A program made the position numbers and the translations under genes. This document shows, piece after piece, positions 3,050-26,128 of a stretch of 31,175 bases of DNA; the first letter of the stretch is position 1; every line of letters starts with the position of its first letter. The stretch spans positions 1 through 31,175 of the forward strand of contig DASPJT010000063.1 of the NCBI GenBank assembly GCA_035628455.1, read 5' to 3'. Source of the DNA: Minisyncoccota bacterium. Lineage in GTDB: Bacteria; Patescibacteriota; Minisyncoccia; Phycocordibacterales; JAKFXT01. Below the pieces are notes generated by a model. The model was given only the letters and a program-made list of their open reading frames with translations, was not told the origin of the DNA and did not search any database.

Positions 3050-4510
3050 ATGGCTCACTTAGCTCGATTGCCGTGGTATGAGGTCGCTACAGGGGCGCTC
3101 TTCCTCCTCGCCTCCTTCTACGCCTTTTACGTGCTCACAGAGAGTCCCCCGACCTGGTACGACGAGGGTCTTTATATCCAGGTAGCTCAATCCATTAGTG
3201 AAAGGGGTAATCAGACCCTCCAGGTCGCTCCCGGAGAATACATCTCCTCGGGCTTCATCACTGGCGGTTATCCTTTTCTTGCGCCGGTCGCGCTCTCCCT
3301 TTCCGTACTCGGCGACTCGCTTTTCTCCGCGCGCCTTCCGATGGCGCTCTTCATTCTGCTCTTTCTCTGCGCCGCCTGGGGTTTCGTGTATAAAGCCTTC
3401 GGCCGCGAGGCGGCGCTCCTCTCGCTCCTCCTCCTCGCGACCTTGCCGCTCATCTACGGGAACGGCAAGAACGTCCTCGGAGAAGTGCCGGGGCTCTTCT
3501 TCCTCACGATCTCGCTCTACTTCCTCTGGCGCATCGAGGCGCGGAATTTCGCAGGCGTCGGCTCCTACATCGGTGCGGGGCTCGCGGCCGGACTCGCGGT
3601 CGCCACGAAGCCCCTCTTCCTGCTCCTCCCTGGAGCGATCGCTCTCGCGCTCCTTTTCCGCTTCCGCTCGGTCAGCTTTCGCTTCCGGGAGATAGCTGCG
3701 GCAGGAATCGCCTTCGCGCTCCCGGTCGCGCTCTGGCTCTTCCTCCAGTTCGGGGTAGGGGATCGCGCGGGCGCGACGCTCGCGTACTACGCGAATCCCT
3801 ACGGCATCGAGTCGCTCGGAGAGATCATCCTCGGGAACGCGCTCCGCTTCGCGACCGAAGCCACCCCTCTCTATTGCGCCGCCTTCATGCTCCTCTGGCT
3901 CGCAGCCTTCCTCCTCCGCCTCATCCGCCGCGAGCGGATACTCCTCGCCGAATGGACGGCGCTCGCGTTCTCCCTCCTTGTGCTCGCGGCCTACCTCCGC
4001 ACCGCGGGCTGGTACCGCTACCTGTTCCCGGCGCTCGTGCTCGCGCTCCTCTTCGCGCCCTCTAATCTCGCGACCATCCTCGACGCGCTCCGGCGCTTCC
4101 GCCCGTCCTTCGGCTCTCTTTTCTCCCGCGCTCTCCTTATCGGGGCCTGCCTCGGTGTAGGCCTCTTGCAGCTCTATCAGCTCAACTATTCCTCCTGGGT
4201 GGCGGAGCACTACGAGAGCACGGCCGCCCGCGAGCTCGACGCCTACTTCTCAATGGTCTCGCCGGGGGAGACACTCTTCGTCTACAATGTCCCGGAAGCC
4301 GTACCTTTCATCCGCTCGGAGAGTTACTATCAATACATCGCCACCACTGAGACGATGGTCTACGGCGCGGCGGGGCTCGCAGCGCTCCGGGAGGGGATCC
4401 CTGATCGGGTGATCGTGAGCGCTTCCGACTATGCGAGAGAGGCTCCGCTTTTCGCGCGGTACATCCCGGCGGGGCAGCTGGGCTCCTACCTCTCCCTTGC
4501 CAGGAAGTAG
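3050..4510 (+). CDS. ArnT/PMT-like (GT-C, GT83/39-like) membrane glycosyltransferase
   Basis: N-terminal TM followed by WYDEGLY acidic loop, then SARL, E.PGLFF, GLAVATKP, RYLFP. Many TM helices and a soluble C-terminal domain. Confidence 0.8.
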   Translation: MAHLARLPWYEVATGALFLLASFYAFYVLTESPPTWYDEGLYIQVAQSISERGNQTLQVAPGEYISSGFITGGYPFLAPVALSLSVLGDSLFSARLPMALFILLFLCAAWGFVYKAFGREAALLSLLLLATLPLIYGNGKNVLGEVPGLFFLTISLYFLWRIEARNFAGVGSYIGAGLAAGLAVATKPLFLLLPGAIALALLFRFRSVSFRFREIAAAGIAFALPVALWLFLQFGVGDRAGATLAYYANPYGIESLGEIILGNALRFATEATPLYCAAFMLLWLAAFLLRLIRRERILLAEWTALAFSLLVLAAYLRTAGWYRYLFPALVLALLFAPSNLATILDALRRFRPSFGSLFSRALLIGACLGVGLLQLYQLNYSSWVAEHYESTAARELDAYFSMVSPGETLFVYNVPEAVPFIRSESYYQYIATTETMVYGAAGLAALREGIPDRVIVSASDYAREAPLFARYIPAGQLGSYLSLARK

Positions 4511-18455: not shown

Positions 18456-19735
18456 GGGTTTACAGAGGGTTCCGCGATGTCGTCGTTGCGGTCGGTGAAG
18501 TAGAAGTAGGCGGAGAGGAAAGCGCCCATGAAGCGGGAGGCGACGCGGGAGAGCATGAGGCCGAGGAGCCCTGCAAGCGCGATCCCAGCGAGCACTGCGA
18601 GCACCTGGAAGATGCTCATGAATACATTGATGAAATACTGGGCGCGCACGCGGCGCTTGGCGCTCAAATAGAGTCCCATGGGAGCCGCGGCCATAGCGAG
18701 GAAGGAGACAGCGTAGATCTGCGAGAGTAGGACGGCGTCCATGTACTGCGGGTAGATCAAGCGGAAGACGAAGGGCGCGATGAGGATGTAGCCGACCGCC
18801 ATAGCGAGCCCGAGGAGGAAGAAGCGTAAGGTCTTCTGACCCATCCCCTGCCGGAGCTCTTCTGCAGAGCGTTCCGCGAATCTCGGGAACATGAGGGTCG
18901 AGAGCGCCTTAGTCAGGAGCTTCGACTGGGAGGGGAGGGCGAGCGCGAAGGAATAGACGGCGAGGGGTGCTGCGCCTAAGAGCTGGAAAGCGAGTATCTT
19001 GTCCAGGTTGTCCGCGACGTTCGAGATGACGTTCATCAGGGAGAGGTGCTTGCCGTAGGTCATCGCCGTCTGATCCTGCTCGTTCCCCGGGGCGAAGCGG
19101 CTGTTCACATAGAGGTAGAGTCCTGCAGCAGAGACGAGGTTCGCGGCGAAGTAGGCGAGGATGACATGGAGCGCGCTCGAGGACACGGACATCACTAAGA
19201 GGAGGGAAGCAGCGGGCAGGATATTGTTCACCGCGTAATACCCCGCAGTCACCTGGAACGCCTTCTTGCCGTTTAAAAAGGCGGCGGCAAGCGCGGCGCT
19301 CGTGGTGAGCGGCTGGATGAAGGCGATGAGGAAGAGAGAAATACCCAGCGTGCTGTTGCCATTAACAAAGTAGTAGAGGCCGATCACGACCGCGCCGAGG
19401 GATGCGGGGATGCTCCACTTCAGGTTCTTGAAGAAGGCCTGCCGGAGCACACCTTCCTTGCCGCGGGCCACCGCCTCGATGACGGCGGTCTCGAGCCCGG
19501 TGAGGGTGAAGGAGTTTATGGTGGATGCTACCGAGAGCACGTACTTGTAGACGCCGTAGGCGGTCTGCGGCAGGAGGTTTGCGAAGGCGAGCGAGAGGAT
19601 GAAGGAGGTGGCGCCGGAGACGAAGGAGCCGATGGAGAGCCAGAAGCCGCCCTTGGTGAGGTAGAGCATGTCCGTCTTGGTGTACTTCTCGCTCCAGCGC
19701 AGAAGCCGCACCAATCGCTCCCGAAGAGAATTCAT
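18452..19735 (-). CDS. Wzx-like oligosaccharide flippase
   Basis: About 12 TM. ANLLPQTAYGVYKYVLS, DKILAFQLLGAA.LAVYS.A, IYPQY...V.L.QI pattern. Confidence 0.85.
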   Translation of the reverse strand: MNSLRERLVRLLRWSEKYTKTDMLYLTKGGFWLSIGSFVSGATSFILSLAFANLLPQTAYGVYKYVLSVASTINSFTLTGLETAVIEAVARGKEGVLRQAFFKNLKWSIPASLGAVVIGLYYFVNGNSTLGISLFLIAFIQPLTTSAALAAAFLNGKKAFQVTAGYYAVNNILPAASLLLVMSVSSSALHVILAYFAANLVSAAGLYLYVNSRFAPGNEQDQTAMTYGKHLSLMNVISNVADNLDKILAFQLLGAAPLAVYSFALALPSQSKLLTKALSTLMFPRFAERSAEELRQGMGQKTLRFFLLGLAMAVGYILIAPFVFRLIYPQYMDAVLLSQIYAVSFLAMAAAPMGLYLSAKRRVRAQYFINVFMSIFQVLAVLAGIALAGLLGLMLSRVASRFMGAFLSAYFYFTDRNDDIAEPSVNP

Positions 19736-19741
19736 GGGCTT

Positions 19742-19771
19742 ACTTTAGCACCGAATTAGTAAATTTTCCAA
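19742..19771 (-). promoter_or_regulatory. Probable leaderless promoter of the flippase operon
   Basis: Minus strand TTGGAA, 18 nt, TGc-TAAAGT, then 6 nt to ATG 19735. Confidence 0.55.
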
Positions 19772-19827
19772 GCAAATAAAGGGTTTTTAGGTCATTACCT
19801 GAACCGGTCCCAGCCTCCGAAGGGTAC

Positions 19828-19856
19828 TTGACTTATTTATATTATAATGATATACT
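19828..19856 (+). promoter_or_regulatory. Near-consensus sigma70 promoter
   Basis: TTGACT (19828-19833), 17 nt, TGa-TATACT (19851-19856). Confidence 0.8.
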
Positions 19857-19913
19857 AATCACTAGTTGCCGTATTCCGCGGCAAGAGATCTTAGACAAGG
19901 GGGGATTTATCCC

Positions 19914-20519
19914 ATGAATGCACCGATGTCCGTCGTCTCTCAGCGGGTGAACGGTGGTCCCGCTATCCGTTCCTATCTCCTCGATCCGACCCATCCCGGC
20001 GACATTGCGCTCGGCAGCGGCCGTATCGAGAGGGACGAAGACTACGCGATGGTGGTGAAGAACACCATCGTCACCTGCGCCGACGCGATCTTCCTGGCCA
20101 AGGGTCGGGACGGCAAGATCGAGAAGAAGTTCTATCTCGCGCGCCGCGCGGTCGAGCCCATGAAGGGCCTGTGGGTCTTCGGCGGACGCCTCGCCTTCAA
20201 CATCACCTCCCCGCAGGAGGGCCTCGCGCGCGTCATCAAGCGCGAGACGAAGCTCGACATCTCGCCGGAGCGCTTCGAGTTCCACTCGGTCCACATGTAC
20301 ACCTGGGCCAAGGTCGCGCAGGGCGACTTCCCAGGCCGCAACCTCGCGCTGAATCACCTCTGCGTGCTCACGCAGGAGGAGATCGACGCGATCGTCCTCG
20401 ACAAGGAGTACGAGCCCGACTCTTTCCGCGGCTACGCCCGGGACGAGATCGCCGACGAGATCGAGCGCCGCGGCAGCCACGCCATGCTCCTCGACCTCTT
20501 CGATCAGATCCACGGCTAG
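19914..20519 (+). CDS. NUDIX hydrolase, GDP-mannose mannosyl hydrolase (Gmm/WcaH)-like
   Basis: EDYAMVVKNTIVTCADAI...YLARRAVEPMKGLWVFGGR...LARVIKRE parallels Gmm EDFATVVRSTPLVSLD...LGKRTNRPAQGYWFVPGGR. ATG 19914 follows a G-rich SD; TTG 19866 and ATG 19926 are alternatives. Confidence 0.75.
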   Translation: MNAPMSVVSQRVNGGPAIRSYLLDPTHPGDIALGSGRIERDEDYAMVVKNTIVTCADAIFLAKGRDGKIEKKFYLARRAVEPMKGLWVFGGRLAFNITSPQEGLARVIKRETKLDISPERFEFHSVHMYTWAKVAQGDFPGRNLALNHLCVLTQEEIDAIVLDKEYEPDSFRGYARDEIADEIERRGSHAMLLDLFDQIHG

Positions 20520-20558
20520 TACCTCCGCATCTCTCCAGTCTGTTCCCACCTCGACTCC

Positions 20559-20593
20559 CGGCGCCGCCTCACCCGCGGCGCCGTTTTCTTTTT
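20559..20593 (+). terminator. Intrinsic terminator
   Basis: CGGCGCCGC-ctcaccc-GCGGCGCCG followed by TTTTCTTTTT. Confidence 0.85.
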
Positions 20594-20620
20594 CCATAAA
20601 ACGGCGCTAGTATGGGCGCA

Positions 20621-21343
20621 ATGCTGTCGGTCATCATCCCCTGTTTCAACGCCGCCTCCTCTATCGAAGCGCGGATCGGCAAACTCATCGCCTTTCTCGC
20701 CGACCACTTTCCTGCCTTTGAAGTCATCATCGTGGACGACGGGAGCGCGGATGCTACTCCCGAGCGCCTAGTTGCCCTTGAGAAGAAGGACCCGCGGGTG
20801 TACGCGGTTCTGCTCCCAGAGAACCGCGGCAAGGGCGCGGCGGTTGCCGCGGGGGTAGAGAAGAGTCGCGGAGATTTCATCGTCTTCACCGACGCGGACC
20901 TCCCGTATGACCTCGAGGCTATCCCGCGCTTCGTGGATTCTATCCGTAGCGGCTACGACGTGATCCTCGGGAGCCGCTATCTCGCAGGCACGAGCATCGA
21001 GGGTGTCGAGAATCAGACCATTGACCGCACGCTCCTCAGCCGCGTGTTCGTGTTCCTGGCGAACCTGGCGCTCGCGCATCCGGTGTCCGATACCCAGAGC
21101 GGCCTCAAGGGATTCTCCCGCCGCGCGGCACTCGCCATCTTCTCCCGGATCACCGTCTTCCGCTTCGCCTTCGATGTGGAGGCTATCGCGATCGCGCAAG
21201 CGCTCGGCCTCCGCATCAAGGAATCGCCGGTCTCTCTAGTCAGCCAAGGGCGTTCGACCGTACGCCTCGCGCGGGATGGCTTCGAGATGTGCCTCGATCT
21301 CCTGAAGATCTTCCTGCGCTATCGGCTCTCGCTTTTTAAATGA
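20621..21343 (+). CDS. GT2, dolichyl/polyprenyl-phosphate beta-glucosyltransferase-like
   Basis: MLSVIIPCFN, IIVDDGS.D.T, NRGKG.AV, FTDADL, GSR, DTQSGLKGF, FAFDVE. The start is moved from 20612 because TAGTAT (20608-20613) lies 7 nt before ATG 20621. Confidence 0.88.
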   Translation: MLSVIIPCFNAASSIEARIGKLIAFLADHFPAFEVIIVDDGSADATPERLVALEKKDPRVYAVLLPENRGKGAAVAAGVEKSRGDFIVFTDADLPYDLEAIPRFVDSIRSGYDVILGSRYLAGTSIEGVENQTIDRTLLSRVFVFLANLALAHPVSDTQSGLKGFSRRAALAIFSRITVFRFAFDVEAIAIAQALGLRIKESPVSLVSQGRSTVRLARDGFEMCLDLLKIFLRYRLSLFK

Positions 21344-21906
21344 CTATGGAACAGAAGCCGGAATCAAAAGCGCTGGTCGAGATAGTGGAGGCTGCTCCGG
21401 AGGATGTCCGCGGGATGCAAGAGGTCTACCAAGAGACCTGGCTCGATACCTATCCCGATGAAGAAGCGGGTATCACCCGGGAAGACATCGAGGATTTTCA
21501 CAAAGACATCCTTAGCGAGAAAAGGCTCGCTGAAAGGGCTGAACAGGTCGCGCATCCCAAAGAAGGCCATACGATCCTCTTGGCCAAAGAGGGGAGTAAG
21601 GTCGTAGGCGTGTGCTATCTCATCACTTCGGGAGAACAGAACCGGCTCCGCTCCCTTTATGTGCGGCCCGGTTATCAGGGCAAGGGGGTAGGCAGGAAGC
21701 TCTGGGCGGAAGCCAAGAAGCGCCTCGATCCGGGGAAAGAAACGATGGTGTCTGTGGCGACATACAATAAGAAAGCTATCGATTTCTACGAGAAGCTCGG
21801 CTTTCGGGATACCGGAAGGCGCTTTAGCGACGAGCGGTTCCGGATGAAGAGCGGGAATGTCATCCCGCAGATGGAAATGAAGCTCGAAACCCATGAAGAA
21901 CAGTAA
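21340..21906 (+). CDS. GNAT-family N-acetyltransferase
   Basis: LYVRPGYQGKGVGRKL (acetyl-CoA binding Q/RxxGxG) and YNKKAIDFYEKLGF. Confidence 0.92.
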   Translation: MTMEQKPESKALVEIVEAAPEDVRGMQEVYQETWLDTYPDEEAGITREDIEDFHKDILSEKRLAERAEQVAHPKEGHTILLAKEGSKVVGVCYLITSGEQNRLRSLYVRPGYQGKGVGRKLWAEAKKRLDPGKETMVSVATYNKKAIDFYEKLGFRDTGRRFSDERFRMKSGNVIPQMEMKLETHEEQ

Positions 21907-22051
21907 GCACAAGCTTTCCGTCGAGCGCCTCGCGCATTTCCGCTGCGGGAGCTGCGATAAATGGTGGAGCGTCGGGGACGCGCCTCAGTCAAAAAGAGAC
22001 TGGCATTGCCCCTGGTGCGGACTCCACCAAAGAGCGGTAAAATCGAAGTGA
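21893..22051 (+). CDS. 52-aa CxxC...CPxCG metal-binding protein (zinc ribbon/rubredoxin-like), below the ORF-track length cutoff
   Basis: My translation is MKNSKHKLSVERLAHFRCGSCDKWWSVGDAPQSKRDWHCPWCGLHQRAVKSK*. It fills the 21906-22056 gap, overlapping the GNAT end by 14 nt and stopping 4 nt before the next ATG. Confidence 0.8.
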   Translation: MKNSKHKLSVERLAHFRCGSCDKWWSVGDAPQSKRDWHCPWCGLHQRAVKSK

Positions 22052-22055
22052 TCCT

Positions 22056-22841
22056 ATGTATTACGACACCCTCCGCAAGGACCTCTTCGCGGCAATCGAT
22101 TATCCCAAGGACCTGACCGCGCTCATCGGCGAGGCGGAGCCGTGGCGGGGATTCTGCACGCTCCCGCGCGAAATGAAGGAGAGATACTCTTTCCTCAATC
22201 ACCAGCAATACCATGATCCGGGCTACCGTTTCCGCAGCAAGGCTGAGGGAAGGGAGGACAAGGAATATTTCCATCTCTATCCGGATACGTACGAACTGAT
22301 CGCGGCCAACGGGCTTACCGAAGAGGTGCGGTCCGAGAAGAAGCTTTCCGATTTCTTCAGCTATGCGGACAAGACGTATCATGCCGCGCATGAGTTCGCC
22401 ATGCAGATCGGACGGGATATGGGCAGGGAGATCCCGGAGTTAGGCAGGCTTGTCGAGGAAGGCAAGGTGCGCTCCACCCTCCGCTTCCTCCATTACCTCA
22501 ACGGCGACGATACGGATGTCATCGCCGCCCAGCATTTCGACCGCAGCCTCTATACGCTCCACCTCTACGAGAGCGGACCCGGCCTCCAGTTCATGAACTG
22601 GGATATGCAGTGGACGGATGCGCCAATCGACATTGGGAAGACTGTCGTCTTCAGCGGCTACCGCCTGGAGAAGCTGACGGAAGGGAAGATCCAGAAGACC
22701 TGGCACCGAGTCGCGCGCAAGGATGAAGTGAAAGGCCGCGTGTCTATGGTTCTCTTCGTGTGGACGAGGGAAGTGGAGGATTATCCCCGGGAAGCGCGCT
22801 CTCAGGATATGACGCCTTCGTACGCTCCGCTCTCCGCCTAA
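22056..22841 (+). CDS. 2-oxoglutarate/Fe(II)-dependent oxygenase (isopenicillin N synthase-like superfamily)
   Basis: LRFLHY, HFD (HxD), GPGLQ, VVFSG, WHRV (distal His), RVS (RxS 2OG-binding motif). Confidence 0.85.
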   Translation: MYYDTLRKDLFAAIDYPKDLTALIGEAEPWRGFCTLPREMKERYSFLNHQQYHDPGYRFRSKAEGREDKEYFHLYPDTYELIAANGLTEEVRSEKKLSDFFSYADKTYHAAHEFAMQIGRDMGREIPELGRLVEEGKVRSTLRFLHYLNGDDTDVIAAQHFDRSLYTLHLYESGPGLQFMNWDMQWTDAPIDIGKTVVFSGYRLEKLTEGKIQKTWHRVARKDEVKGRVSMVLFVWTREVEDYPREARSQDMTPSYAPLSA

Positions 22842-23260
22842 GCGGACTCCGCGAGCCTCTTCCGGAGCGCGGTGGTGGAGTGCGCGTGATTGCGCTCGTG
22901 GTAATAGATCTCGTCGGCGAATTCCTGGCCGGTTACGATCTTGCCCTTCCAATCGCTCCCGAGGATGCGGATGTGAGGGCCTAAATTCTTGATAGCTTCC
23001 AAAAGCGCGGGCTCGTCGTCGTAGACGAAGATCTCGTCCACGTAGCGCGTGCCCTCGAGCATGATGCGCCGCTCCTCCAAGGTCATGACCGGAGGATTTT
23101 TCTTTTTTCCACGGTAGCTCGCATCCGTGATGGAGGGATCAATCTGAAGGCCCGCGACGAGATAGTCGCACCTGCTCTTGGCGTCCTTCAGCATGAGCAT
23201 GTGGCCCGCATGCAGGAGATCGAACGCGCTTGCGACAAGGCCTTTTTTCAGAGTTTTCAT
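22838..23260 (-). CDS. Cytidylyltransferase-like nucleotidyltransferase (TagD-like HxGH family)
   Basis: SAFDLLHAGH, YLVAGLQ.D, EER, YVDEI, LGSDWKGK, HSTTALR. SD AAGGAGG 7 nt upstream. Confidence 0.88.
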   Translation of the reverse strand: MKTLKKGLVASAFDLLHAGHMLMLKDAKSRCDYLVAGLQIDPSITDASYRGKKKNPPVMTLEERRIMLEGTRYVDEIFVYDDEPALLEAIKNLGPHIRILGSDWKGKIVTGQEFADEIYYHERNHAHSTTALRKRLAESA

Positions 23261-24120
23261 AATTTTTCCTCCTTAATTTCTTGAATATAGTCGGCGAGAG
23301 ACCGCCGCGCAATCCATCCCAAGGCTTCTGATTTTGTTGTATCCAAAAATCCTCCCATACGATTGCCCTTACGCTCGGGGAGCATCTCTATCTCGCCGCC
23401 AAGCATGCGGGCTACGTCTAAGACCGAATATGCTTCTTTGGCGCCCAGGCCGAATTCATCTCCGTTGCCCTTTTCACCTACGAGCAGGAGTCCGTCGACA
23501 ATATCGTCGACGTGAGTAAAATTTCTTTTTTGGGTGCCTGGCGTGACGACAGACAAAGGCTTTCCTTGGAGGAATTTCTGACGAAATATTTCGATTACGG
23601 AACCGTAGATGCCGGAGCGTTCGCCTGGTCCGTAGACGTTGTAGAAATATGTGATCGCGAAAGGCAGCTCGTACCAATCGTGATAATTCCTGACAAGCTC
23701 CGTATTCGACGCCTTTGTCCAGGCGTAAGGACTTTGATCGCGCCCCAGGCCGCCGTCGGCGAATTTCGTAGAGGATCCGGCGTAAATCAGCTTGGGCTTC
23801 TTCTTGCGCCAGAATTCGAGGACTCCGAATGTGCCGGCTTTGTTTAAATCCCAAACGATATCTGGTTCATCAAAGCTTTTCTCCACGCGGGAGTATTCCC
23901 CGAGGTGATAAAGGATGCCGGGTTTTTCGGGTATATGACGTTCTATATCTCTTGTGTGTCCCTCCCGATATTCCACGCCCGCCGCATGGTTCTCACGCGA
24001 TCCGGTAAAGTAATTATCGAGTGAAATGACTTTGTAGCCCGAGGCGAGCAGTCTCTTACAGAGATGTGTACCGATAAAACCAGCACCGCCCGTGACGACA
24101 GCCAGCTCAGCATTAGGCAT
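23257..24120 (-). CDS. NAD-dependent epimerase/dehydratase (extended SDR)
   Basis: VTGGAGFIGTHL, SLDNY, YAGSS, SPYAWTK (YxxxK), FYNVYGP, RNFTHVDDIV. Confidence 0.9.
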   Translation of the reverse strand: MPNAELAVVTGGAGFIGTHLCKRLLASGYKVISLDNYFTGSRENHAAGVEYREGHTRDIERHIPEKPGILYHLGEYSRVEKSFDEPDIVWDLNKAGTFGVLEFWRKKKPKLIYAGSSTKFADGGLGRDQSPYAWTKASNTELVRNYHDWYELPFAITYFYNVYGPGERSGIYGSVIEIFRQKFLQGKPLSVVTPGTQKRNFTHVDDIVDGLLLVGEKGNGDEFGLGAKEAYSVLDVARMLGGEIEMLPERKGNRMGGFLDTTKSEALGWIARRSLADYIQEIKEEKL

Positions 24121-24132
24121 CGAGTGGGAGAG

Positions 24133-24447
24133 TTAGAACGACAGGCGGCCGGAGGCGACCTTGAAGGCGTCCCGCACTACGAAGAGGCAGAGAGCGATCC
24201 CTGCAAGCGTGGCGACCTGCACCAGGAGGGAAGTATTGAGGAAGGCTTCGGTGTGGAAAGCGAGGAGCGCCGGGAGATCGTAGGGCGCCGGCATATTGCG
24301 GAGCACGTGGCGCACCGAGACAGAGAGGGAGATGGTGAATATGGCTGCGAGGAGCCCGAGCGCGCGGAGCCCGAGAGGCGAGAGCGCGAAGCGGAGCGCG
24401 AAGAGCGCGTACACGCGGAGCATGATGCGATTCTTGAGTGTAGACAT
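24133..24447 (-). CDS. Small membrane protein downstream of the ECF sigma factor
   Basis: 104 aa with two to three hydrophobic segments. It starts 5 nt after the sigma stop, in the same orientation. Confidence 0.75.
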   Translation of the reverse strand: MSTLKNRIMLRVYALFALRFALSPLGLRALGLLAAIFTISLSVSVRHVLRNMPAPYDLPALLAFHTEAFLNTSLLVQVATLAGIALCLFVVRDAFKVASGRLSF

Positions 24448-24452
24448 ATGGG

Positions 24453-25049
24453 TTAAGCGAACATGGTGGACCCGTTCATCTTGTCATTGAGCTTCCGGAA
24501 GAGCGCCTTGGCGCGGTGCACCCTCGCCTTGGTCGCGCCGACCGAGATGCCCTCCTCCCGCGCGATCTCTTCCTGGGATTTCTCCTCGAGGAAGAAGCGG
24601 CGGAGGACGGAGGAGAACTGGAGCGGCATCCGGGCGAGGACGGATTCGATGTGATCGCGGTGCTCTTCGCTCACGCGGAAAGCCTCAGACCCGGGATCCG
24701 CGAGCACCGCCTCGAGCTCCTCCGAGAGCCCCACCGCGCCTGCCCGCTTCCGCTTCTGGTAGAAGCTGAGGCAGGTGTTGATGAGTACGGTGTAGGCCCA
24801 GGAGCGGAAGGAGCCCTCGCCCTCCGGGGTGAACTGCGCGGAGCGGCTGTAGAGCTTCACGAAGGTATCCTGCACGGCGTCCTGCGCGTCCTCCTTGTTG
24901 TAGAGGACGCGCTCGGCGCGGCGGAGGAAGGCCTTCTCGTAGCGCGCGACCAGTGTCGCGAAAAGCCACGGGCGGGTGCGGGAGAGGAGGAAGATCTCCT
25001 CGTCCCCGCGCGTATCCTTCGTTGTCTCTAGGGTGTCTTCAAGAAGCAT
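24453..25049 (-). CDS. ECF (sigma70 group IV) RNA polymerase sigma factor
   Basis: Region 2: DAQDAVQDTFVKLY, FRSWAYTVLINTC. Region 4: LARMP..F..VL, SQEEIA...GISVGATKARVHRAK. ATG 25049 (GGAG 8 nt upstream) is preferred over 25103. Confidence 0.9.
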   Translation of the reverse strand: MLLEDTLETTKDTRGDEEIFLLSRTRPWLFATLVARYEKAFLRRAERVLYNKEDAQDAVQDTFVKLYSRSAQFTPEGEGSFRSWAYTVLINTCLSFYQKRKRAGAVGLSEELEAVLADPGSEAFRVSEEHRDHIESVLARMPLQFSSVLRRFFLEEKSQEEIAREEGISVGATKARVHRAKALFRKLNDKMNGSTMFA

Positions 25050-25055
25050 GGTAAT

Positions 25056-25077
25056 GGCTCCGAGAGCCCTCGGAGCC
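25056..25077 (-). promoter_or_regulatory. 5'-UTR hairpin occluding the SD of the ECF sigma gene
   Basis: Minus-strand GGCTCCGAG-ggct-CTCGGAGCC-attacc-ATG, a 9-bp perfect stem that contains the GGAG. Confidence 0.55.
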
Positions 25078-25106
25078 GGTTTATAATGATCGACCTGCAC
25101 CATTAG

Positions 25107-25132
25107 AACGCTCCCGGTGGACTCGAGGTTAC
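25107..25132 (-). promoter_or_regulatory. Putative ECF-type autoregulatory promoter
   Basis: Minus strand gtAAC, 17 nt, CGTT. Confidence 0.55.
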
Positions 25133-25135
25133 TTT

Positions 25136-25165
25136 TTGTGAAAAAGGGCAGGCCGGGCGTATACT
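25136..25165 (+). promoter_or_regulatory. Putative sigma70 promoter of the ABC operon
   Basis: TTGTGA (25136-25141), 18 nt, TATACT (25160-25165). Confidence 0.5.
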
Positions 25166-25210
25166 GGCTCTACCGTAGGCTCAATTAACGCACGTTTCGC
25201 GCAAATATCA

Positions 25211-26128
25211 ATGTCCGCTCTCGCCGTCACCGATCTCAGGAAGACCTACGCGAACGGGGTGGAAGCCCTCCGCGGCGTCTCTCTCACCGTGGAGAAAGGC
25301 GACTTCTTCGCGCTCCTCGGCCCCAATGGCGCGGGCAAGACTACCCTCATCGGCATCGTGGCGGGGCTCGTGAACAAGACGGGCGGGACGGTCTTCGTGG
25401 ACGGGATCGACGCGGAGAAAGAGCCGGAGCGGGCGCGCACGCGCATCGGCCTCGTGCCTCAGGAGTTCAATTTCAGCATCTTCGAGAAGACGGAAGATAT
25501 CGTGCTCGCGCAGGCGGGCTACTATGGGCTCCCGCGCGCGCTCGCGCGCGAGCGCGCGGAGAAATACCTCACCGCGCTCGGGCTGTGGGAGAAGCGCAAG
25601 GAGCCTTCGCGTACCCTATCAGGGGGCATGAAGCGGCGTCTCATGATCGCGCGTGCCTTGGTGCATGAGCCGCCGCTCCTCATCCTCGATGAGCCGACAG
25701 CAGGCGTCGACATCGAACTCCGTCGCGGAATGTGGGATTTCCTGCGGGAAGTGAACGGGAAGGGTACCACCATCATCCTCACCACGCACTATCTCGAAGA
25801 AGCCGAGCAGCTCGCCAAGAACGTGGCTATCATCAACAAAGGGGACGTCATTGCCCAGGGTACGATCCGCGAACTCCTCTCGCAGCGGAGCGGGGAGTCC
25901 TTCGTATTCGATACGGCTGCGCCGTACCCGTCGGAGTTCCCACAAAAGCTTGCCGCTTTCGCGCCCAAATCCATAGATAAAGACAGCCTGGAGGTTTCGC
26001 TCTCGGGGACGCAGACTTTGAATGAAGTCCTCCGGATCTTCGATGCAGCGGGCGTCTCCGTCCGCAGCATGCGCAACAAGACGAACCGCCTGGAGGAGCT
26101 TTTCCTTACTCTCACTAAACATGCCTAG
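25211..26128 (+). CDS. ABC-2 type transporter ATP-binding protein (YadG-like)
   Basis: GPNGAGKTT, LSGGMKRR, LILDEPTAGVD, TTHYLEEAE, NRLEELF. Confidence 0.95.
   Translation: MSALAVTDLRKTYANGVEALRGVSLTVEKGDFFALLGPNGAGKTTLIGIVAGLVNKTGGTVFVDGIDAEKEPERARTRIGLVPQEFNFSIFEKTEDIVLAQAGYYGLPRALARERAEKYLTALGLWEKRKEPSRTLSGGMKRRLMIARALVHEPPLLILDEPTAGVDIELRRGMWDFLREVNGKGTTIILTTHYLEEAEQLAKNVAIINKGDVIAQGTIRELLSQRSGESFVFDTAAPYPSEFPQKLAAFAPKSIDKDSLEVSLSGTQTLNEVLRIFDAAGVSVRSMRNKTNRLEELFLTLTKHA

Follow-up and report, generated by a model that had tools for sequence, protein, structure and literature searches.

A 52-residue four-Cys protein encoded next to a 2OG-Fe(II) oxygenase in a CPR genome belongs to an unnamed family of predicted zinc ribbons

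Between the genes for a GNAT acetyltransferase and a 2OG-Fe(II) oxygenase, the 31,175-nucleotide stretch of DNA from a Minisyncoccota bacterium analyzed here ("the window") contains a short open reading frame (ORF), here termed ZR, with two Cys knuckles. Is it a gene, and does it encode, as originally predicted from the nucleotide sequence, a compact rubredoxin-like Fe/Zn protein, possibly an electron donor or metal-handling partner of the adjacent oxygenase? The unlisted 52-aa ORF is indeed where it was predicted to lie: its ATG is at 21893 and its stop codon ends at 22051, it encodes both FRCGSCDKWW and DWHCPWCG, it overlaps the GNAT ORF (which ends at 21906) by 14 nt, and a gap of 4 nt separates it from the start of the oxygenase ORF at 22056. 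The relevant features are as follows.

20612..21343, + strand: GT2 glycosyltransferase gene, identified by Pfam; conserved upstream neighbor of ZR in the genus
21340..21906, + strand: GNAT acetyltransferase gene, identified by Pfam; situated exactly at the GT2/ZR junction
21893..22051 (including the stop codon), + strand: ZR gene, encoding a 52-aa four-Cys mini-protein, predicted to be a zinc ribbon; evidence from the ORF, homologs, profile, purifying selection and the AF2 model
21917..21940, + strand: N-terminal lead-in of ZR, S9-V-E11-R-L13-A-H15-F16, running into predicted strand 1 (residues 13-17)
21944..21955, + strand: first Cys knuckle of ZR, C18-G-S-C21, both Cys invariant, at the turn between predicted strands 13-17 and 24-28
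21962..21985, + strand: ZR block W24-W25-S-V-G28-D29-A-P31, part of the family signature, after the first knuckle
22001..22021, + strand: second knuckle of ZR with its flanks, W37-H-C39-P-W-C42-G43; C39 and C42 invariant
22056..22841, + strand: 2OG-Fe(II) oxygenase gene, identified by Pfam; opens a 2.1-kb block (22052-24130) that also includes, on the minus strand, genes for a cytidylyltransferase and an epimerase

The GT2, GNAT, ZR and oxygenase genes are co-oriented and tightly packed, and a terminator-like site is found only upstream of them (20559-20583). Three sequencing runs contain the stretch, all of them of soil-metagenome DNA and none of RNA.

Conservation of an unannotated gene

The length of the ORF carries no weight of its own: ORFs of at least 50 codons are abundant in all six frames of the window (about 58-60% GC), and since such GC-rich DNA is full of spurious ORFs of similar size, that of ZR is not longer than expected by chance. 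A chance ORF with a fortuitous Cys pattern would also be in keeping with our failure to find the exact ZR protein in a collection of 15 billion proteins, an absence that also fits a gene that has not been called in this genome. This explanation is, however, already refuted by the conservation data, and we regard its probability as practically negligible. Homologs of ZR show 67% identity in the same genus and 42-59% in other families of the order, and a profile of the family, built from seven sequences including the window ZR, retrieves 928 protein clusters, 250 of them at an E-value of 1e-10 or better (the window ZR matches it with an E-value of 4.9e-28, being one of its seven source sequences). 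Comparison with the same-genus copy reveals 11, 8 and 30 differences at codon positions 1, 2 and 3, respectively; across the comparisons pN is 0.12-0.28 while synonymous sites (pS) are saturated, and the one unsaturated pair yields a dN/dS ratio of about 0.08. The four Cys residues are invariant across 112 members, as is a His, and the confident fold prediction (see below) likewise argues against a random ORF. Both a dN/dS ratio below 1 and homologs with conserved Cys, which the original prediction had proposed to look for, are thus observed. The same prediction held that annotation pipelines would probably miss such a gene; this is true of the present genome, in which ZR was left uncalled, but homologs elsewhere are routinely called by gene finders. 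We conclude that ZR is a genuine, unannotated small gene, which adds a real and strongly conserved protein to a genome of about 0.6-0.7 Mb where each retained gene counts.

Family signature and predicted fold

ZR is a member of a large, as yet unnamed family of very small four-Cys proteins that is common to CPR bacteria and phages and has a predicted zinc-ribbon fold. Across 112 members H15, C18, C21, C39 and C42 are invariant and nine further residues are nearly invariant, and the window ZR carries every one of these. Among 81 ungapped members, the E, L and H of the lead-in are conserved in 100% and its F in 95%; in the block following the first knuckle the two W, G, D and P are found in 98%, 85%, 88%, 93% and 83%, respectively; and in the second knuckle P, W and G reach 95% each, with W37 at 91%. 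The spacer between C21 and C39 comprises 17 residues in ZR, and 16-18 residues in 132 of 146 family members. The resulting signature, E-x-L-x-H-F-x-C-x-x-C-x-K-W-W-S-I-G-D ... W-x-C-P-W-C-G, in which K-W-W-S-I-G-D runs on as A-P, makes the family, with its hundreds of clusters, unusually well conserved for a module of about 40 residues.

The family is missing from Pfam, NCBIfam and PHROGs. A scan of the window ZR against these databases and PADLOC returned nothing above cut-off (all matches were to zinc-knuckle proteins and were sub-threshold or had an E-value of at least 0.003); its best Pfam match is DUF7836 (E-value 0.0034, 17.6 bits versus a cut-off of 26.7). None of the 112 members has a confirmed match above any family cut-off, their lowest Pfam E-value being 1.5e-06. 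Our literature searches retrieved nothing on the family.

The AF2 model of ZR (pLDDT 92.7) comprises two hairpins, with strands at residues 13-17, 24-28, 36-38 and 45-47 and knuckles at 18-21 and 39-42, so that each C-x-x-C is located at the turn of a beta-hairpin, as in the Zn-beta-ribbon layout. Its best structural neighbors are all zinc ribbons or knuckles (NZF, ZitP, LysW, IBR, archaeal ribosomal zinc ribbons and RbpA), with weak scores throughout, as expected for about 40 residues, and the sub-threshold Pfam matches of the 112 members also fall exclusively into zinc-ribbon families, in particular DUF5817 (59 of 112), Zn_ribbon_8 (39), DUF7836 (32) and HVO_2753 (25). The predicted fold class is therefore the zinc ribbon, within the broad "rubredoxin-like" class. 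The four invariant Cys at the turns of the two hairpins would most likely hold a single metal ion, and, judging from the fold class, this ion is very probably zinc. The conserved aromatic and acidic surface (E-x-L-x-H-F, K-W-W-S-I-G-D-A-P and W-x-C-P-W-C-G) may serve as a binding face.

In size, predicted fold class and the layout of four Cys on two hairpins ZR matches stand-alone Zn-beta-ribbon micro-proteins (DUF7836, DUF5817, HVO_2753-like and FmdB/Zn_ribbon_8). It differs from them in that its family possesses an extended signature of its own, with no member reaching a Pfam E-value below 1e-6, and in that its members come from CPR bacteria and phages, not from haloarchaea or methanogens. 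RbpA, the RNA-polymerase-binding protein of Actinobacteria, accounts for many of the top Foldseek matches in the PDB (probability up to 0.92, TM-score by query 0.55-0.63), but with E-values of 0.3-2 and 13-20% identity there is no sequence relation, and it does not appear in the list from the VIA search. RbpA, likewise small, exerts its effect solely through binding to a conserved machine, and we regard its likeness to ZR as an analogy for the mode of action only.

A number of other resemblances were considered and rejected. Protein disulfide isomerases, the top matches of the family profile in a PDB sequence search, are spurious because they have only the P-W-C-G string in common with it, and the weak phylum-wide matches of the profile are RNHCP-domain proteins, the adenylate kinase lid and similar sequences that share the zinc knuckles only. 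An anti-sigma reading (H-x3-C-x2-C) of H15...C18..C21 fails, as the spacing is one residue short and the predicted structure is a beta ribbon and not helical; the NCBIfam anti-sigma match has an E-value of 0.12. One profile match (L015) turned out to be the reverse complement of the 3' end of a tRNA-Ala, which translates by chance to W-W-S-I-G-D. That the DNA of the ZR motif is itself constrained as a tRNA-like site can nonetheless be dismissed, because Ser and Gly at the motif positions use all codon boxes; the conservation is at the protein level.

Rubredoxin, the oxygenase and the glycosyltransferase

Rubredoxins are characterized by the knuckles C-x-x-C-G and C-P-x-C-G, about 29 residues apart, with a conserved aromatic core. 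ZR resembles them in being small and in having four Cys in two C-x-x-C knuckles, the second of which reads W-x-C-P-x-C-G. The spacer, however, is shorter by far, so that the loop of the aromatic core is missing, and ZR lacks the Gly that follows the first knuckle of rubredoxin (in the family this position is K in 32% and G in 9% of members) as well as any redox partner or redox context. PF00301 (cut-off 23 bits) has no match at an E-value of 1 or better in the six-frame translation of the whole genome, while 11 of 14 control genomes respond; it is not listed among the Pfam matches of the window ZR at the same threshold, nor is rubredoxin among the 25 Pfam families most often matched by the 112 members. 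PDB rubredoxins match the family profile with E-values of 1.3-4, i.e. no better than ribosomal L33 or RpoP, and the structural matches (Foldseek against the PDB, and 23 VIA entries at Z of at least 2), which have weak scores owing to the short model, include the C-terminal domain of rubrerythrin (Z 2.2) and no rubredoxin. By sequence, ZR is not a rubredoxin. Of the "compact rubredoxin-like Fe/Zn protein" there remain the four-Cys metal knuckles and the broad fold class, while membership in the rubredoxin family proper fails on PF00301, spacer and profile.

The link to the oxygenase can be examined in relatives. The most informative one is G001, a 100% complete genome of the same genus from our panel of 40 relatives. 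Alignment with the window (blastn and tblastx) reveals counterparts of GT2 (20603-21343) and ZR (21911-22020), followed by those of a membrane protein and a sigma factor (24131-25214); the GNAT region (21344-21892) has no counterpart between GT2 and ZR in these searches, the 2OG block has none between ZR and the membrane protein/sigma factor pair, and no oxygenase homolog was found in this genome. The GT2 stop in G001 overlaps the ZR start by 4 nt. It thus appears that GT2-ZR is the conserved backbone of the locus and that variable insertions flank ZR, the GNAT gene on one side and the oxygenase block on the other, in which case ZR would be neither a dedicated partner of the oxygenase nor an electron carrier.

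The remaining relatives agree with this picture. Among the 40, the oxygenase is present only in G039 and G027, both of which lack ZR, and no oxygenase match was obtained in the ZR-bearing genomes G001, G018, G012, G005 and G029. Within 6 kb of ZR no homolog of the oxygenase, the GNAT or the GT2 was found at any of 160 other loci. For the oxygenase we relied here on tblastn and HMM results, as a loose scan for the H-x-D...H...R-x-S motif gave 59 chance matches near ZR (including SecA) and was uninformative. Tight packing, which had been taken as a sign of partnership, proved to be a habit of the whole family behind many unrelated genes: at 96 of 158 loci ZR closely follows some unrelated gene, and the distance from the upstream stop to the conserved Glu codon has a median of 32 nt.

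These data bear on two explanations that tie ZR to its neighbors in this window. A rubredoxin-like Fe/Zn protein that donates electrons to the adjacent oxygenase, or handles metal for it, and so keeps its iron reduced could appeal to the second knuckle, to the position of ZR 4 nt upstream on the same strand, and to one distant look-alike in AlphaFold DB that bears the automatic name "Rubredoxin-like domain-containing protein". Against this, not only does ZR fall outside the rubredoxins, but it is kept under selection in the same-genus genome and four other relatives devoid of the oxygenase, while the two oxygenase-bearing relatives do without ZR, and in phages the family occurs beside replication genes. 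2OG-Fe(II) oxygenases obtain their electrons from 2-oxoglutarate and are not known to require a protein donor; the rubredoxin-dependent "AlkB" is a membrane di-iron alkane hydroxylase unrelated to them. The absence of linkage between ZR and the oxygenase is shown by the synteny in G001, the relatives and the other loci, and the partnership, already largely refuted by these phyletic and synteny data, strikes us as very improbable. With the proposed redox helper removed, any argument for oxygen-dependent chemistry in this CPR genome must rest on the oxygenase alone. It could instead be argued that ZR is an accessory of GT2, e.g. a small regulatory or assembly subunit in glycan modification, which the GNAT and oxygenase genes joined later. 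The adjacency of GT2 and ZR in G001, with the overlap of stop and start, and the co-oriented packing of the four genes in the window would be in line with this proposal, but no GT2 homolog was found within 6 kb of ZR at the other 160 loci, the closest homologs of ZR sit upstream of uvrA, and packing behind unrelated genes is the rule for the family. Observed in this genus alone, the adjacency amounts to one evolutionary event, and we consider a role as a GT2 subunit decidedly unlikely.

Distribution, genomic neighborhoods and a possible role

The family is patchily distributed among Patescibacteria (CPR), where ZR is usually a tightly packed small gene behind a larger one. Strong matches were obtained in 6 of 41 relatives and in about 3 of 401 genomes of a phylum-wide sample, whereas 28 of 40 relatives have no match at an E-value of 1 or better, i.e. 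the gene is dispensable in many of them. One same-family genome carries a decayed copy. Recoding of TGA in G005, where an in-frame TGA occupies the position of Trp25, was considered and rejected: the standard code leaves the neighboring long ORFs intact, and since two further invariant positions are also changed, decay is the simpler explanation.

A search for loci with a 36-column core alignment of the family also revealed 143 matches in viral contigs, and uncultivated phages carry ZR, among them a group that has T4-like replication and baseplate genes. One may therefore ask whether ZR is a mobile, phage-related accessory (defence, counter-defence or regulatory) cassette that settles behind host genes and has no housekeeping role. 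The patchy distribution, the viral matches and fusion partners typical of phage accessory genes speak for it, as do repeated weak matches (E-values 3e-4 to 6e-3) to the PADLOC candidate defence protein PDC-M14A and, in G012, a 125-nt direct repeat that duplicates the 3' end of ZR around a 2-kb insert. The PADLOC matches are, on the other hand, far from significant and may reflect the zinc knuckles only; no integrase or other mobility gene lies beside ZR in the loci examined; tblastn with the window ZR and two viral members found no match at an E-value of 1e-3 or better in 50,697 deposited phage genomes; and a long-lived SecA-ZR-Nudix-AI-2E-Obg synteny, shared by many genomes, points to vertical inheritance there. 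On balance, a purely mobile cassette seems quite unlikely.

Genomic neighborhoods and fusions suggest a different context. ZR is found fused to NADAR, a YfbR-like HD dNMP phosphatase, ASCH, DUF1653, Ham1/ITPase, and a cytidylyltransferase plus Nudix (one protein has the architecture ZR-cytidylyltransferase-Nudix). A Nudix gene occurs within four genes of ZR at 19 of 80 genome loci; at 15 of the 19 it is directly adjacent. At least four arrangements are seen, and many of the adjacencies are not independent because a single SecA-ZR-Nudix-AI-2E-Obg synteny underlies them. In the closest homologs UvrA is directly downstream; other neighbors include RecR, the MYG1 exonuclease and TatD, and in viral contigs ZR is found behind the gene for the sliding clamp at 19-20 loci and behind that for ribonucleotide reductase at 13. 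Outside this nucleotide and DNA theme stand SecA, GrpE/DnaK and phosphoglucose isomerase, together with GT2 in the present genome; an abundance of housekeeping genes is typical of small CPR genomes. In the window, ZR has neither a Nudix gene nor a repair gene next to it.

A four-Cys ribbon in front of, or directly beside, a Nudix domain is reminiscent of the N-terminal zinc ribbon of Nudix proteins (PF14803), which 13 of the 112 members match weakly and below threshold (best E-value 0.00097) and the window ZR does not match. Unlike PF14803, ZR is mostly a separate gene with many other partners.

Guilt by association would place the role of ZR, tentatively, in the sphere of nucleotide and DNA metabolism, possibly as a zinc-stabilized interaction module (binding protein or nucleic acid) that works with enzymes of the nucleotide pool and of DNA metabolism. 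A simple nucleic-acid binder is not favored, as the family is not basic throughout (its median pI is 7.7, and 27% of members fall below pI 6). Taken as a whole, the explanation that we consider probable combines a structural zinc ribbon of an unnamed CPR and phage family, a GT2-ZR backbone at this locus, the absence of a partnership with the oxygenase, and, more tentatively, an interaction module of the nucleotide/DNA sphere. A more specific version, to which we give little credence, is that of a portable adaptor that would dock house-cleaning and repair enzymes (MutT-like Nudix, Ham1/ITPase, HD dNMP phosphatase, NADAR, UvrA) onto a conserved hub of DNA replication or repair, or else onto nucleic acid that is damaged or modified. 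Unlikely as it is, such an adaptor would account for the many unrelated enzymes of this sphere to which one and the same 36-residue module is fused or adjacent, and for its position behind the clamp and ribonucleotide reductase genes in phages. If the link to nucleotides and DNA is true, the family offers a compact, testable handle on the organization of such enzymes in minimal genomes and phages.

Public records misname members of the family, e.g. as "ribosomal protein S27AE" or "paraquat-inducible protein A", which a family model would end.

The ZR gene and its protein family

The four-cysteine ORF termed here ZR lies between a GNAT gene and a 2OG-Fe(II) oxygenase gene:

21340-21906: GNAT ORF, upstream of ZR and overlapping it by 14 nt (Pfam Acetyltransf_10, E 6e-20)
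21893-22051, + strand: ZR, ATG at 21893, 52 codons, stop at 22051
22056-22841: 2OG-Fe(II) oxygenase ORF, beginning 4 nt past the ZR stop (Pfam 2OG-FeII_Oxy, E 1e-8)

The product includes the strings FRCGSCDKWW and DWHCPWCG, with a knuckle-to-knuckle spacing of 17 residues, and in all these respects (ORF, Cys strings, 17-residue gap, overlap and 4-nt gap) the original prediction matches the sequence exactly. The host assembly (582 kb, 82 contigs, 82% complete) fits an ultra-small genome of the CPR type. The GC content of the window is about 58-63% and spurious ORFs of ZR size are abundant in all frames, so that ORF length by itself is no proof of a gene.

Comparison with homologs shows that ZR is a real gene. 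It is present in a genome of the same genus (G001, 67% identity) and, elsewhere in the order, in three further families (G018, 59%; G012, 49%; G029, 42%), and two proteins from metagenomes match it with 78% and 68% identity. A profile of seven ZR sequences, searched against 1.84 billion representative proteins, retrieved 928 clusters at E<=1e-3, mostly 50-70 aa long, of which 250 reach E<=1e-10. In 112 short members H15 (numbering of the window protein) and the four Cys residues are invariant, and E11, L13, F16, W24, W25, D29, P40, W41 and G43 are at least 90% conserved; the consensus of 81 ungapped members reads S-h-E-x-L-x-H-F-x-C-x-x-C-x-K-W-W-S-I-G-D-A-P-x-x-K-x-x-W-Y/F-C-P-W-C-G. For the 34-codon core pN is 0.12-0.28, with synonymous sites saturated (pS 0.67 to above 0.9), and the sole unsaturated pair gives a dN/dS of 0.08. 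The window gene and the G001 copy differ at 11, 8 and 30 first, second and third codon positions, respectively, and every Ser and Gly codon box is in use in the WWSIGD block, which implies that the protein, not the DNA, is constrained. These sequence comparisons show ZR to be under purifying selection at the protein level.

On the opposite strand, an ORF of 201 codons (21786-22391, -) covers the GNAT end, the whole of ZR and the first part of the oxygenase gene. Substitutions in the ZR frame favor third positions and the plus-strand proteins are conserved, which indicates a shadow ORF due to GC content.

A collection of 15 billion proteins lacks the exact window protein; its homologs are in it, either without a name or mis-named via chance knuckle matches (e.g. 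"ribosomal protein S27AE" or "paraquat-inducible protein A"). Scans of the window protein against Pfam, NCBIfam, PHROGs and PADLOC gave sub-threshold matches only, and the weak Pfam matches of the 112 members scatter over zinc-ribbon families (DUF5817, Zn_ribbon_8, CoiA_N, HypA, DUF7836, HVO_2753, Zn_ribbon_Nudix). None of these curated libraries has the family, which merits a model. Small zinc-ribbon proteins are a very well-known kind; the family of ZR among them is uncatalogued, and ZR itself had not been called before. Six-frame searches with the family profile will meet false positives of the following sort: the 3' end of a tRNA-Ala gene, read on the complementary strand (locus L015, contig G241:C4, 1501-1539; tRNA-Ala at 1516-1592, -), translates to KKWWSIGDSN and is picked up by the profile at E 4e-4.

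Predicted fold and comparison with rubredoxins

The AlphaFold2 model of ZR, calculated from the 112-sequence alignment and confident (pLDDT 92.7), has four short strands (13-17, 24-28, 36-38, 45-47) with Cys pairs at both hairpin turns, and the predicted fold is a classic two-hairpin zinc ribbon. Every structure-search match is weak, as expected with some 40 ordered residues, and every one is a zinc ribbon or knuckle, namely NZF (Z 3.5), ZitP, LysW, IBR domains, archaeal ribosomal and RNA-polymerase zinc ribbons, as well as RbpA (Foldseek probability about 0.9, E about 0.3). AlphaFold DB includes members of the family as unnamed or automatically named entries. The alignment and the model together show ZR as a predicted four-Cys, two-hairpin metal-knuckle protein in a large unnamed family.

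The description "rubredoxin-like" holds for the broad metal-knuckle fold class and for the local sequence of the second knuckle, to which the likeness is limited, and fails for membership of the rubredoxin family. The Pfam rubredoxin model has no match at E<=1 in the whole genome, the same search responding in 11 of 14 control genomes, and it is absent from the 25 families most often matched by ZR-family members. Rubredoxins from the PDB reach E values of 1.3-4 with the family profile and do not outscore ribosomal protein L33 or RpoP. Rubredoxins have about 29 residues between the knuckles, whereas 132 of 146 ZR relatives have 16-18, so that the loop bearing the rubredoxin aromatic core is missing; the Gly that follows the first rubredoxin knuckle is also lacking. 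The structural lists, with weak scores for so short a model, contain no rubredoxin, only the rubredoxin-like end of rubrerythrin (Z 2.2). ZR as a rubredoxin was rejected on the Pfam, PDB, spacer and Gly results. Zinc is the default metal for this fold class, and one structural zinc ion very probably holds the ribbon.

Relationship of ZR to the neighboring oxygenase

The 100%-complete genome of the same genus, G001, served as the reference for synteny. It aligns to the window at 19055-19702, then over the glycosyltransferase gene GT2 (20603-21343), ZR (21911-22020), and a membrane protein and an ECF-type sigma factor (24131-25214); its GT2 stop overlaps the ZR start by 4 nt. Compared to G001, the window contains three extra blocks:

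19703-20602: 217-aa ORF (19866-20519) with no Pfam match, then a terminator-like hairpin (20559-20583)
21344-21892: GNAT gene, exactly at the GT2/ZR junction
22052-24130 (2.1 kb): oxygenase, with a cytidylyltransferase and a NAD-dependent epimerase on the opposite strand from it

Thus ZR belongs to the conserved backbone, with the GNAT gene and the oxygenase as indels beside it, and the stretch of the glycan locus around ZR is a hot spot where genes are gained or lost.

Only two of 40 relatives (G039 and G027) have the oxygenase; neither has ZR anywhere or a ZR-like ORF beside the oxygenase gene. The oxygenase is absent from all five ZR-bearing relatives. For the wider context, contigs representing one genome per species gave 238 genome loci, most of them with the label Patescibacteria, Saccharibacteria or Paceibacterota; 80 of these and 80 of 143 viral loci were fetched. 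In the fetched loci, tblastn detected no oxygenase, GNAT or GT2 homolog within 6 kb of ZR, and an HMM from three oxygenase homologs also had no match in the 160 loci; the expected co-occurrence was not found. Tight packing, noted originally, is a habit of the ZR family: in 96 of 158 loci no more than 90 nt (median 32 nt) separate the end of an upstream gene on the same strand from the conserved Glu codon, and the genes so packed are of many unrelated kinds. The 2OG-Fe(II) oxygenases draw both electrons from 2-oxoglutarate and need no protein reductant, and the rubredoxin-dependent "AlkB" is an unrelated membrane di-iron alkane hydroxylase. Synteny, phyletic pattern and wider context, three independent lines of evidence, agree in showing that ZR is independent of the oxygenase. 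ZR is solid as a gene discovery; the attractive functional story fails testing.

Distribution, genomic partners and possible role

Strong ZR matches occur in 6 of 41 close relatives, the window's own genome included; a phylum-wide sample of 401 genomes has only about 3. A decayed copy in the same-family genome G005 (L005 about 1468-1626, contig G005:C77) has an in-frame TGA at Trp25, Leu at Trp24 and Arg at Gly28; nearby long ORFs are intact under the standard code, which makes a pseudogene likelier than TGA coding for Trp. In G012 (contig C1, locus L185) the 3' part of the ZR gene occurs a second time, 2079 nt further downstream and about 95 nt from a tRNA-Ala, as a 125-nt direct repeat, 97% identical (1349-1473 and 3428-3552); between the repeats lie two genes, one with a weak alpha/beta-hydrolase match and a 305-aa ORF without assignment, and no integrase was found around the repeat. 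The patchiness, the decay, the repeat and the phage copies point to an accessory, occasionally mobile gene, not a core one.

Analysis of the neighbors reveals a recurring order SecA-ZR-Nudix-AI-2E transporter-Obg in many Patescibacteria (L027, L032, L045, L070, L097 and others). By analogy with the secA-mutT (Nudix) pairing known in E. coli, this Nudix protein may be a MutT-type enzyme and ZR may have been inserted into an ancient gene pair. A Nudix gene lies at most 4 genes from ZR in 19 of 80 genome loci, adjacent in 15 of these, in at least four arrangements and on either side. ZR is preceded by RecR in five loci and by DUF1653 in four (SecA-DUF1653-ZR in L069), and followed by UvrA in three (L022, L050, L074), in G029 and beside the closest homolog (78% identity), on whose contig uvrA and the ZR stop overlap by 8 nt; other adjoining genes encode a MYG1-type exonuclease, TatD and a DUF3850/ASCH protein. 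In viral contigs ZR comes after a sliding-clamp gene in 19-20 loci and after ribonucleotide reductase in 13, in surroundings with a DnaB-like helicase and baseplate genes. The 36-residue module is also fused to DUF1653 (three clusters), NADAR, a YfbR-like HD dNMP phosphatase, ASCH, an XRE-type HTH or a second copy of itself, and in two further architectures:

L030, 5971-6996: ZR + cytidylyltransferase-like + Nudix, 341 aa, followed by a second Nudix gene
L081, 3552-4274: Ham1/ITPase with C-terminal ZR, 240 aa

The former may resemble the NadM-Nudix architecture (NMN adenylyltransferase / ADP-ribose pyrophosphatase).

The common thread of these partners is suggestive of nucleotide-pool hygiene and DNA replication or repair, without proving it. 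Against this thread, a single inherited synteny underlies many ZR-Nudix adjacencies, housekeeping genes are densely represented in CPR genomes, other neighbors (SecA, GrpE/DnaK, phosphoglucose isomerase, GT2 in the window) lie off this thread, and family members are not all basic (median pI 7.7). The near-invariant ELHF, WWSIGD and WxCPWCG residues would make a putative binding face, and such strong conservation of about 36 residues, shared by CPR bacteria and phages, speaks for a ligand that is itself very conserved. We tentatively place this ligand, with somewhat less than even confidence, in the sphere of nucleotide and DNA metabolism, as a protein hub or a nucleic acid.

Other readings of ZR fare as follows. 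A genus-specific accessory of GT2 would fit the overlap of the two genes in G001, and is improbable given the 160 loci devoid of GT2 homologs. Redox partnership with the oxygenase, as originally proposed, is highly improbable, being contradicted by synteny, phyletic pattern and context, and the chance that ZR is a non-gene, in a window rich in spurious ORFs, is negligible beside its hundreds of homologous clusters. A phage-derived mobile accessory, e.g. a defence or counter-defence factor, is unlikely; this reading rests on weak matches to PADLOC PDC-M14A, a candidate phage-defence protein.

Five of seven tested members (P0003, P0005, P0006, P0011, L133:4345-4533) give these matches at E 3e-4 to 6e-3, at two separate places of the 152-position PDC-M14A profile, as if two ZR-like repeats were present there; tandem ZR-ZR proteins exist in the family (P0007 and P0125).
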